Of a stretch of DNA of 27,479 nucleotides, positions 1 to 11,166 are shown in pieces. A program made the position numbers and the translations under genes. The notes beneath the pieces are model-generated. The model saw only the letters and a program-made list of their open reading frames with translations, searched no databases and had not been told where the DNA came from. The DNA comes from a virus: the UHGV virus genome UHGV-0150478; one strand, written 5' to 3'. Positions within the stretch are counted from its first letter, which is position 1; each line of letters opens with the position of its first letter.

Positions 1-749
1 TCTTTATCTGTTGTCAGTGCGTCATAATGTGGAGGCATGATGTGCAGGTGTAACGCCATGCGGGCCAGCATCTGATACGCCTTCAGCGTTACATCCATGG
101 TCAGTTCGCCATCGGTCGCGCCAAAGCCATCGCAGAGTTTTTCGAAGGTGCTGCTGAACATCGCCGCCGTCATGGTGGCCAGCGTCTGTATCTGGTGTTT
201 GTTGAGCTGCGGCAGGTAAAGCAAATCGTCCAGGCGTTCGCGTCCGGCAAGGGAGCGATAACCAGGTGTCAGCCAGCGCCCGTCAGTGCGATCCAGACGT
301 TCGAATATTTTGCGCAGGGTTCCGCGTGTATAGCGTTCCGCCTGCCAGCTCTTTTTGCCTTTCTGACGATCGGCTTCCTGCTTCTTGCGCAGGAAAGAGA
401 GGTGGCGGCTCAGAGGTTCTCGCAGATAAACGGGAAGCGCCTTCAGTGTGGCAAAGGCACGGGCTACCGGGTCTTGTTCTGTTGCCCGGCGCTTACTGAT
501 GATGCTCTGTGCCAGCTTTTCACGCTGTCCGGCTTCCTCAAGGGATGCCATGAGTTTTTTACCCATGGCGGATTGTGCGAAAAAGGCTTCTTCCTTCGCT
601 TCCTGTTCTTCCTGTGCCCTTTTGTCCGCCTCAAGGTAGTAACGGATGGCGCGTTGCAGGTCGGTTTCAGTTTCCTGCCTGCGCTCCGTAAATCTGGCCG
701 GATCAATAGCTGGTCGTGGTTCATTCCAGCTCCATGCAAACGCACTCAT
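1..749 (-). CDS. Replication initiation protein, P2 gpA/186 A-like (N-terminal ~249 codons; gene continues beyond window start)
   Basis: Absent from the supplied ORF list because it has no stop inside the window: minus-strand frame is open from ATG at 749..747 to the window edge (translation begins MSAFAWSWNEPRPAIDPARF). ATGA start/stop overlap with ORF 746..1135. Family call rests on position as last gene of the early operon and on recalled N-terminal resemblance; not verified. Confidence 0.4.
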   Translation of the reverse strand, partial: MSAFAWSWNEPRPAIDPARFTERRQETETDLQRAIRYYLEADKRAQEEQEAKEEAFFAQSAMGKKLMASLEEAGQREKLAQSIISKRRATEQDPVARAFATLKALPVYLREPLSRHLSFLRKKQEADRQKGKKSWQAERYTRGTLRKIFERLDRTDGRWLTPGYRSLAGRERLDDLLYLPQLNKHQIQTLATMTAAMFSSTFEKLCDGFGATDGELTMDVTLKAYQMLARMALHLHIMPPHYDALTTDK

Positions 750-1135
750 GGCTGGTATCCCGTCACGCGCTGCCACTCCTGCGAGAAGAGGACGGAAAGG
801 CGGTTAAATTCAGCGGTGTATTCACTCAGCGAGGCACACCCGCCAGCAGTGCGATGCGCCAGCATTGCTGCAAATACGGAGGCCGGGGAGTCGTAATACG
901 CCAGCAGTGATTCGCCGTGCGGTGTCAGGCAGTGCAACGCCAGTCCGTGTGGTGTGAAATCCACGCGGTAGCAGTCGTCTACTGTGAAATAAAGGGTGTC
1001 TGCATTCTCCGGTTTTGTGGTGCGTGCTCTGTTGTCACGACCACGGATGTAGAGATCAAATAACCCCTGAAGAACGGGAGCCAGACGGGTGTCCTGTGTG
1101 CGCACCCATCTTGTGAAGTCATGAGCGTCAATCAT
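746..1135 (-). CDS. Hypothetical early protein (129 aa)
   Basis: ORF in the leftward early operon; its stop overlaps the start of the downstream replication-like ORF (ATGA). Confidence 0.5.
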   Translation of the reverse strand: MIDAHDFTRWVRTQDTRLAPVLQGLFDLYIRGRDNRARTTKPENADTLYFTVDDCYRVDFTPHGLALHCLTPHGESLLAYYDSPASVFAAMLAHRTAGGCASLSEYTAEFNRLSVLFSQEWQRVTGYQP

Positions 1136-1207: not shown

Positions 1208-1438
1208 TTAATGGAGTTTGTTTTGCTGCTGGATGAGCTGTTGAAGCTCGTGCAGATCATCCGCCAGATAGCTGAAAACAGAGGCGGAATAAATGTTTGA
1301 TAGTGCGTGGCTGCGCTCATGCAGCATATTGATGTGCATGATTTGCGCGACGCGTGATGCGCGGGAAAGTCTGCGGTTGATTTCAGTCTGGATGTGACGA
1401 CGCTCCGCGATAGCGCGGTGCTGTTTGCGGTCTGCCAT
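1208..1438 (-). CDS. Hypothetical small protein (76 aa)
   Basis: Protein-like composition; preferred over the overlapping 205-aa and 97-aa ORFs, which read like out-of-frame junk. Confidence 0.4.
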   Translation of the reverse strand: MADRKQHRAIAERRHIQTEINRRLSRASRVAQIMHINMLHERSHALSNIYSASVFSYLADDLHELQQLIQQQNKLH

Positions 1439-1614
1439 GGTGTGGCCTCTTTGCTCGGTGATAGAAATAACTCACCATCCAGAGTTGAGAATCTCGGGGT
1501 GGCGAGACGTACAGGGTTCTCAACACCGGAGAGCAAAGAATCCGGCCCGACCGAAGTCGGCCCCGTACGCCCCGCCATAATTCTGACGCGAAAAAGACGT
1601 GGCAATACAGTACG

Positions 1615-1638
1615 CACAAAAAAACCGCTTGCGCGGTT
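1615..1638 (-). terminator. Intrinsic terminator (minus strand)
   Basis: Perfect 6-bp stem AACCGC/GCGGTT with 4-nt loop at 1623-1638; on the minus strand it is followed by a run of 7-8 U (A-run 1615-1624 on plus). Confidence 0.5.
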
Positions 1639-1760
1639 ATGCGCTTTGCTCTGTATCGGGTTGAGAATCCCGGCACCCGTTTTATGAGGTGCAGCGGAAA
1701 TGTAACCTGACCGATTGCGGCATGGCAAGCGGTTTTTTTGTGTGTGCATGTTCTGGTTTC

Positions 1761-10621: not shown

Positions 10622-10858
10622 ATGGCAGGGCAATCAGATTACCTGCCGCCCGGCTTACCACACAACCGCGCCAAATGGCCTCAGGAATACCTGCTTAAAG
10701 AGCACTACGACATGCGAGCGGCGACGCTGATCCGCCAACTCTTTGAGAAACGTATTCCGAGGGGAAGCGTGATTGAGCAAATCGGAATGACGCCGGATAC
10801 GTACCGGGAATTTTTCAGAGAGCGTCTGAACTACTGGAGAGGGGGGATGGAGCAATGA
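10622..10858 (+). CDS. Hypothetical protein (78 aa)
   Basis: ORF with ATGA overlap to the downstream gene. Confidence 0.45.
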   Translation: MAGQSDYLPPGLPHNRAKWPQEYLLKEHYDMRAATLIRQLFEKRIPRGSVIEQIGMTPDTYREFFRERLNYWRGGMEQ

Positions 10859-11166
10859 AATACAAACGGTGGGTGCGTGCGGAAGTCGTAATCATCAAAC
10901 AATGTGCGGGCAGCATGATAGTTGAACGTATAGGGCAGCTTATTGGAAGAACCGGTGCTGCGGTACGCACAAAAGCGCGCGAGTTGAAAATCTGTATGTA
11001 TCTGCGGGGTAATTATCACCAGTCAGTGAAATACCGCCAGGAGGATATCGAGCTGGCAAGGGAATTACATCAGTCGGGTATTAATCGCCAGGATATCGCG
11101 GAAAAACTCGAAATGTCGATCGGTGCGGTGAATCAGTATGTTTATTTTGAGCGGAGGATTTCATGA
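10855..11166 (+). CDS. Putative DNA-binding protein with two HTH-like segments (candidate regulator)
   Basis: Segments MIVERIGQLIGRTGAAVRTKAREL and GINRQDIAEKLEMSIGAVNQYV both look like helix-turn-helix units (sigma-70 region 4 / LuxR-like). Confidence 0.4.
   Translation: MKYKRWVRAEVVIIKQCAGSMIVERIGQLIGRTGAAVRTKARELKICMYLRGNYHQSVKYRQEDIELARELHQSGINRQDIAEKLEMSIGAVNQYVYFERRIS

Follow-up and report, generated by a model that had tools for sequence, protein, structure and literature searches.

The non-coding island in the early operon of the window, by which we mean the whole stretch of 27,479 nucleotides analysed here, is an IsrK plus C4 antisense-RNA immunity cassette, a known kind of phage RNA switch. 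As judged from sequence similarity, its carrier is a P2-like Escherichia coli prophage of the P88 group (Xuanwuvirus, Peduoviridae), and we consider it very probable that the island serves this P88-like prophage as an RNA-based secondary immunity cassette of the P4, P1 and N15 type. What was computed here comprises the family membership and the structures of both RNAs, the complementarities together with the way they co-vary, the overlap between the target b2 and a ribosome-binding site, and the homology of the first downstream gene to an anti-repressor.

Two structured RNAs in the early operon

The first 5 kb of the window are a minus-strand gene array, in which a gap of 322 bp separates the stop of an ORF for a 99-aa Ead/Ea22-like protein (2060->1761) from the start of a 76-aa ORF (1438->1208). 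A sequence-only reading had found no credible ORF in this gap and suggested that a small RNA of about 145 nt could be released from it. The island is indeed non-coding, with the caveat that a 205-codon minus-strand ORF (1749->1132) crosses it, and it is structured and very probably makes small RNA, but instead of a single RNA two are predicted, of about 75 nt and of 88 nt. When the whole window was scanned with Rfam at gathering thresholds, exactly two matches were returned, both within the island and both on the minus strand. At 1692->1618 the full length of RF01394 (isrK) is matched with 63.1 bits (E 1.7e-11), where 50 is the gathering score, and at 1582->1495 model positions 1-87 of 87 of RF01695 (C4 antisense RNA) are matched with 78.5 bits (E 4.8e-14), where it is 45. 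The features of the island and of the genes behind it are the following:

1699-1728, minus strand: candidate promoter of the IsrK-like RNA, with -35 TTGCCA (1728->1723), an 18-nt spacer and -10 TACATT (1704->1699)
1618-1692, minus strand: IsrK / P4-seqA-like small RNA (Rfam RF01394) with three hairpins, the last being the terminator
1660-1673, minus strand: target site a1, with the core UUCUCAAC (1667->1660) in the loop of IsrK hairpin 2; second copy of the direct repeat reported earlier
1644-1652, minus strand: target site b1 (AGAGCAAAG), a single-stranded stretch that directly precedes the terminator hairpin
1616-1638, minus strand: intrinsic terminator of the IsrK-like RNA, from scan and fold
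1495-1582, minus strand: C4 / P4-CI-like antisense RNA, from Rfam RF01695 and fold
1530-1539, minus strand: antisense element b' (UCUUUGCUCU), the 10-nt loop of C4 hairpin 2
1517-1524, minus strand: antisense element a' (GUUGAGAA), located in the single-stranded C4 junction; the inverted partial copy reported earlier
1484-1497, minus strand: target site a2, with the core UUCUCAAC (1491->1484); first copy of the direct repeat
1446-1456, minus strand: target site b2 (GAGCAAAGA, 1456->1448), overlapping the Shine-Dalgarno sequence AAGAGG (1451->1446)
1208-1438, minus strand: gene of the 76-aa "derepression protein", homologue of the P4 epsilon anti-repressor
3-1135, minus strand: downstream genes of the same transcription unit, namely a 129-aa ORF (1135->746) and the gpA replication endonuclease starting at 749 (Phage_GPA)

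The IsrK segment folds with -24.2 kcal/mol (z -3.1), and its structure is kept over 15 loci with 97.5% of cells paired and compensatory changes in 7 pairs. The terminator had already been recognized on the minus strand from the letters alone and is found again, as a stem at 1638->1623 (AACCGC-GCAA-GCGGTT) that is followed by U7 at 1622->1616; its helix is 95.5% paired across loci. A consensus scan placed the candidate promoter, which matches the sigma-70 consensus in 9 of 12 positions and ends 7 nt before the 5' end of isrK, with an A7 tract (1739->1733) just upstream of it. Loci of P4, of N15 and of lambdoid and P88-like phages all have promoter-like -35 and -10 elements equally far from the 5' end of isrK, and 1728->1699 probably functions as a promoter. 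The IsrK-like RNA would then be a primary transcript of about 75 nt that extends from this promoter to the terminator. A second promoter-like site at 1605->1577 was rejected, as its start would fall inside the 5' stem of C4 and the site is missing in relatives outside the P88 group. Hfq binding is a trait of the isrK RNA family. The terminator of Gifsy-1 IsrK is leaky and its read-through is known (PMC4825925), and by analogy the terminator at 1638-1616 may also be read through in the window phage.

The stable UUCG-loop hairpin described before (CCGAC-UUCG-GUCGG at 1562->1549, -13.9 kcal/mol, with none of 200 shuffles as stable) exists as claimed, but it is merely the inner hairpin of an 88-nt structure at 1582->1495 (-47.6 kcal/mol, z -4.9), and this C4/CI-like unit downstream of the terminator had not been recognized. 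The unit is built from a 17-bp closing stem, the UUCG hairpin, a hairpin that carries b' in its loop, and an 8-nt single-stranded junction that carries a'. Its minimum-energy fold is the Rfam consensus, in which both a' and b' are exposed. Over diverse loci 97.3% of the cells of this fold are paired and 16 of its 28 pairs show compensatory changes, a level that none of 500 shuffles reached, and the slid controls gave about 40%. In the C4 family, a longer transcript is processed by RNase P (in P4 also by PNPase) to give the mature RNA, and the 88-nt RNA of the window phage may be processed in a similar way; the conserved 5' flank AAUUAUGG and the CCACC 3' tail are both present, which by themselves are no proof of processing.

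A 21-nt inverted repeat (95% complementary, 1612-1632 and 1725-1745) brackets isrK. In an RNA that enters from upstream, the upstream arm of this repeat can pair with the 3' arm of the IsrK terminator and its U-tract, and the predicted fold of such an RNA (-55.2 kcal/mol, z -5.9) contains a long helix that replaces the terminator hairpin. According to this folding model, the inverted repeat might let transcripts of the early operon bypass the IsrK terminator, while transcripts from the isrK promoter would terminate. Across 45 sequence variants the arms are nearly invariant and no compensatory change was found in them; the upstream arm, consisting of the A-tract and TTGCCA, may simply be an UP element and the -35 box of the promoter. 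On the plus strand, the segment 1706-1739 has the form of a canonical intrinsic terminator.

Pairing elements and their covariation among relatives

The direct repeat GTTGAGAATCYCGG, which the sequence-only reading had pointed out, is present in two copies at 1484-1497 and 1660-1673, the first of which had been placed one nucleotide off. These are its only two matches in 27 kb, with 0.28 expected by chance if 2 mismatches are allowed. The inverted partial copy GGGTTCTCAAC is likewise found, at 1514-1524, and a second triplet had been missed, in which CTTTGCTC at 1448-1456 and 1644-1652 is opposed by GAGCAAAGA at 1531-1539. Both triplets are made up of an antisense element in C4 and its two targets: UUCUCAAC is the perfect complement of a' (GUUGAGAA), and AGAGCAAAG in b1 (1652->1644) and GAGCAAAGA in b2 (1456->1448) are complements of the b' loop. 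Perfect complements thus lie in the window at a1, a2, b1 and b2, with a length of 8 nt for a and 9 nt for b. The 8-mer GAGCAAAG of the b target has an extra minus-strand copy at 2792-2799 in a 138-aa early gene, without an a target nearby, which is most likely due to chance.

The core of a2 begins 4 nt past the 3' end of C4, a position that corresponds to a2 in the annotated P1 record. The Shine-Dalgarno sequence at 1451->1446 serves the gene with the ATG at 1438, and its overlap with b2 is found in all P88-like copies. When the whole leader (1692->1425) is folded, b':b2 and a':a2 pair in cis and the ribosome-binding site is buried. The gene behind it encodes the 76-aa protein, which matches Pfam PF25738 "Derepression" (E 7.5e-8, 32.5 bits against a cut-off of 27) and shares 32% identity over 50 aa with P4 epsilon (E 6e-9); the homologue in the P88 record is annotated as "derepression protein". 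The 129-aa ORF and gpA that follow may come under polarity, and they are probably co-regulated with the derepression gene.

A sensitive DNA search recovered 144 phage records that contain the island; P88-like phages are among them, as are many Stx-converting lambdoid phages, ST64B, N15 and Yersinia phages. Fifteen loci were fetched for the Rfam scan, and sequence diversity was drawn from the phage collection and from a pattern scan of IMG/VR; a contig scan with the 76-aa derepression protein gave three close relatives only. An isrK match that is followed by a C4 match on the same strand occurs in 14 of the 15 loci. P4 and N15 are among the loci that contain the tandem. In P4 the isrK match is seqA and the C4 match is the CI RNA, and in P1 the c4-a1b1 motif (RF03163) precedes C4. 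Over 16 diverse loci, the a' core has a perfect complement of 7-8 nt at isrK position 26-27 (39 in the c4-a1b1 region of P1) and a second one that sits 1-8 nt after the 3' end of C4. The downstream complement of b', perfect over 8-10 nt in most of these loci, lies about 35-39 nt beyond a2 (30-49 nt over all 16 loci) and adjoins the start codon.

A scan of IMG/VR with the conserved C4 hairpin yielded 120 further loci, and these, the earlier loci and the window together gave 123 copies with full context. The next gene is the derepression gene in 105 copies and another gene, mostly of P4 type, in 18. Perfect complementarity of at least 7 nt is present at all four sites in 110 of the 123 copies; in the remaining 13, one of the sites is weakened by a G.U pair, a mismatch or a deletion. 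About 10 a cores and about 20 b loops make up 29 distinct (a',b') combinations. The a and b elements assort independently, and the a element of the window is found with three different b loops. The most frequent combination, seen in 27 copies, is that of the window (a = UUCUCAAC, b = GAGCAAAG).

Sixteen P88-like leaders, for which distinct a'/b' elements were the sole selection criterion, were then aligned. Variation is confined to six patches, which are a1, b1, b', a', a2 and b2, and the scaffold is otherwise about 90-100% identical. The duplexes a1:a' and b1:b' are 96.0% paired with 69 double-change cells, and their covariation score of 0.71 compares with 0.13 after shuffling (0 of 500 as high). 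Very similar values were obtained for a':a2 and b':b2, with 95.2% paired, 68 double-change cells and a score of 0.712 against 0.145. Taken over all antisense:target cells, about 96% are paired compared with 66% in shuffles, and controls in which the partners were slid by 1-3 columns reached at most 53%. In the b1:b' helix every cell pairs (100%) and two-sided changes occur in 7 of 9 pairs; for b':b2 the figures are 98.6% and 6 of 9. Across related prophages, for which a covariance analysis had been suggested, the antisense elements and all four targets co-vary (123 copies, 29 specificity combinations). This shows selection for RNA-RNA pairing with diversifying specificity. Duplex energies separate cognate from non-cognate partners clearly for b (-13 versus -7 kcal/mol) and poorly for a, where the flanking GGG/CCC are conserved and several loci share a specificities. 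The pairing of a and b was judged by exact complements and column-wise pair counts in place of duplex energies.

The a duplex occurs in both strand polarities. In P88 the C4 RNA carries GUGGAAA and the targets carry UUUCCAC, whereas ST64B and several P4-like elements have UUUCCAC in C4 and GUGGAAA in the targets; another such flipped a' pair is GUGAGAA in phi349 and UUCUCAC in P4. C4-like RNAs of the two flipped types are mutually complementary at a' and could therefore titrate each other in a cell that contains both elements. A P88-like enterobacterial cassette, with a derepression gene whose product is 88% identical to that of the window, was also found at 1247-1728 of NZ_JBQPOM010000071.1, a contig titled Vagococcus sp. 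WN89Y and hence assigned to a Gram-positive organism; this contig is probably a contamination or mis-binned. Other Rfam matches occur in related loci and none of them in the window: sRNA-Xcc1 next to antB in phage P13803 (568-651 of that locus), STnc130 adjoining the integrase end of a P88-like prophage (10792-10926 of locus L001, PV468777), and ryfA in Yersinia phage 39 (2718-3016 of that locus).

Regulatory model and competing explanations

We infer the transcription start, the read-through, the processing and the direction of regulation. In the proposed mechanism, the promoter at about 1728-1699 on the minus strand would produce the IsrK/seqA-like RNA of about 75 nt that ends at the terminator 1638-1616. 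Transcripts that read through this terminator, or that come from the early operon, would contain the 88-nt C4/CI-like RNA (1582-1495), which would pair with its nearby downstream targets, a' (GUUGAGAA) with a2 and the loop b' (UCUUUGCUCU) with b2. As b2 covers the Shine-Dalgarno sequence of the P4-epsilon-like gene, this pairing, in cis or in trans by the processed RNA, is expected to block translation of the anti-repressor. Through the loss of transcription-translation coupling, transcription would probably also stop early, before it reaches the 129-aa ORF and gene A. In a lysogen, the C4-like RNA would keep the epsilon-like anti-repressor untranslated, and the IsrK-like RNA, as a carrier of decoy copies of both targets, would set the threshold. 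Since it carries a1 and b1, the IsrK-like RNA could titrate C4, which would be activating as in Gifsy-1, or it could be an autoregulatory cis target as in P4. Its effect may be of either sign, as the two experimentally studied relatives differ in this respect, with a repressive cis target in P4 and a trans activator in Gifsy-1. Further points against the proposed mechanism are that the regulated gene differs from the icd/ant of P1 and from the kil/eta of P4, that the promoter matches its consensus in just 9 of 12 positions, and that 13 of the 123 copies pair less well at one site.

The cassette resembles that of P4 in the order of upstream target, antisense RNA and downstream target (seqA - CI/seqB - seqC), in the promoter directly upstream (P_LE in P4), and in the epsilon-family anti-repressor and the replication gene downstream. 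It differs in that its carrier, a complete P2-like phage, has an integrase, gpA and a C/Cox switch of its own, whereas P4 is a helper-dependent satellite. Furthermore, the spacer between isrK and C4 has 35 nt in the window and 107 nt in P4, the epsilon homologue of the window follows immediately whereas P4 has kil/eta and other ORFs, and the a and b sequences differ, with a flipped strand polarity of the a duplex. The premature-termination mechanism of the P4 CI RNA is said to have been described by Sabbattini (1995), Briani (2000) and Forti (2002). [quoted passage not shown]

This raises the alternative that the primary action in the window phage is also P4-like, such that pairing of C4 with nascent a1/b1 and a2/b2 triggers premature transcription termination and does not mainly block translation. 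Autoregulation would then rely on termination at the IsrK terminator, and immunity on termination downstream of a2/b2. The P4 CI RNA and seqA are indeed direct Rfam homologues of the two RNAs of the window, b1 sits 6 nt upstream of the terminator hairpin, and a replication gene lies downstream, as alpha does in P4. However, the overlap of b2 with the Shine-Dalgarno sequence recurs in each of the loci examined and suggests that translation is affected first, and a scan for minus-strand intrinsic terminators found none between b2 and the gene. We therefore think that termination as the primary action is possible but rather doubtful. Translational block and transcription termination do not exclude each other.

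With the immI region of P1/P7, the island shares two antisense elements (a' and b') and two target pairs, which the GenBank record gives in the order a1, b1, c4, a2, b2, icd. In both cases b2 covers the ribosome-binding site of the first downstream gene, with the first base of b2 18 nt before the start codon, and the controlled function is an anti-repressor. According to the annotation of the P1 record, binding of C4 to a2/b2 blocks icd/ant translation, and work of Citron and Schuster from 1990 and 1992 reportedly established this. Differences are that the upstream targets of P1 lie in the c4-a1b1 motif (RF03163) and not in an isrK-type RNA, that the P1 promoters are C1-controlled, and that icd and ant1/2 follow downstream, whereas the window has the PF25738 / P4-epsilon homologue, which is functionally analogous and belongs to another family. 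N15 has the isrK and C4 tandem as well, and its a' (GUUGAGAA) and a2 target (UUCUCAAC) are identical to those of the window, whereas its b specificity and its downstream genes differ. In the anti-immunity region of N15, a small processed RNA reportedly controls the anti-repressor antC (Ravin et al. 1999).

The Gifsy-1 locus of Salmonella (isrK - orf45 (STnc1160) - anrP) is similar in that a stable C4-like RNA comes after an IsrK RNA whose terminator is leaky, and an anti-repressor gene comes next. In that system, IsrK is a structural homologue of P4 seqA and controls the anti-repressor via an upstream ORF, and the complementarity between IsrK and the downstream RNA was shown by compensatory mutations (PMC4825925). 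By position, the Gifsy-1 pairs between IsrK G28/G31 and C159/C162 would fall in a1 and a'. The read-through isrK transcript is translationally silent owing to pairing in cis, and the short IsrK activates in trans the anti-repressor AnrP and thereby prophage induction (PMC4825925). Differences are that Gifsy-1 is a lambdoid prophage, that the regulation runs via orf45 translation, that the anti-repressor belongs to a different family, and that AntQ is the toxic output. An induction switch of this kind would mean for the window phage that the long transcript is silenced by itself in cis and that the short IsrK-like RNA opens the anti-repressor in trans, which would induce the prophage. The mutational, compensatory and 30S-binding data from Gifsy-1 (PMC4825925) speak for such a switch, as do the a1/b1 elements of the IsrK-like RNA in the window and the leader fold with its Shine-Dalgarno sequence sequestered in cis. 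On the other hand, the activation in Gifsy-1 runs via orf45, which starts at the AUG 5' of C4 and is coupled to the anti-repressor, whereas the anti-repressor of the window has its own Shine-Dalgarno sequence, overlapped by b2, and the orf45 counterpart is out of frame and has 148 codons. We keep the induction switch as a tentative explanation that is less plausible than the C4-mediated block of anti-repressor translation outlined above.

This orf45 counterpart is a minus-strand ORF of 148 codons (1578->1132) that begins at a conserved AUG (1578->1576) in the 5' flank of C4 (AAUUAUGG), corresponding to the orf45 start of the Gifsy-1 study. It crosses the derepression gene in another frame, and its stop codon TGA (1134->1132) overlaps the ATG of the 129-aa gene (1135) as ATGA. 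The ORF may serve translational coupling, or it may simply reflect how closely the copies are related. PGAP labels the frame from the C4 AUG as "similar to ash family protein". One could accordingly suppose that the island is protein-coding and that the long minus-strand ORF yields a functional Ash family protein: the ORF reaches 205 codons at 1749->1132, the PGAP note appears in a relative, and the frame from the C4 AUG is open for 147-149 codons in 91 of 103 P88-like copies. Against this, the Pfam Phage_ASH match, the sole family match of the 205-codon ORF, stays below its cut-off (18.6 versus 26 bits) and coincides exactly with the two RNA genes; the ORF lies in a different frame from the derepression gene that it overlaps, it is shortened to 16-143 codons in 9 copies, and the pattern of variation fits RNA pairing and not codons. 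With its sub-threshold Phage_ASH match and the truncated copies, the Ash reading was rejected as the main explanation, and we consider a functional Ash product very improbable.

The earlier suggestion that the repeats are DNA sites for a protein (a repressor, an RHH protein or an initiator) or origin iterons could appeal to two direct copies and one inverted copy within 190 bp adjoining a replication gene, but there are only two direct copies without regular spacing, each copy lies in a defined single-stranded element of a conserved RNA structure, and the copies are halves of RNA-RNA duplexes in which direct and inverted copies change jointly, base for base with C4, so as to keep Watson-Crick pairing while a and b assort independently, and this covariation of antisense and target therefore rules out such sites as the reason for the repeats, leaving that suggestion next to no probability.

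Carrier phage, distribution and significance

The genes around the island, taken with the closest phage records, mark the carrier as P88-like, with integrase, C, Cox, early ORFs, the island, the "derepression protein", the 129-aa ORF, gpA and ParM. Of 5426 complete E. coli genomes, 1178 contain the island, 481 of these with at least 99% identity. Among the ten best-matching RefSeq records, eight of which contain it in full length with 100% or 99.7% identity, no feature is annotated over the island, and phage records cover it with spurious "hypothetical protein", "transcriptional regulator" or "ash family" calls. A literature search found no account of the cassette in P88-like phages. The type of element is already well described and is detected by curated models, and the island reveals no new mechanism.

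It is conceivable, and in our view quite unlikely, that P88-like phages took up an RNA immunity module of the P4 satellite type together with the epsilon-like anti-repressor and diversified it into modular "RNA barcodes" with RNA cross-talk. If this were true, helper phages, satellites and other prophages that share a cell would confer mutual immunity or mutual derepression on one another through the cassette, and C4-like RNAs of co-resident elements with a flipped a duplex could pair together.

In P88-like prophages, ParM and a plasmid partitioning/stability protein adjoin the replication gene (457-1735 of locus L001 and 119-1394 of locus L136, downstream of gpA), in a region that lies past the left end of the window, which hints at a plasmid-like stage. 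A P4-type RNA immunity module that controls replication would fit such a plasmid-like lifestyle.

The main value of the finding lies in annotation, given that about one fifth of the complete E. coli genomes carry the island. Its a and b sequences provide a simple read-out of RNA immunity specificity, and once the cassette is recognized, the way in which the anti-repressor and replication genes are probably regulated becomes apparent for a common P2-like prophage group.
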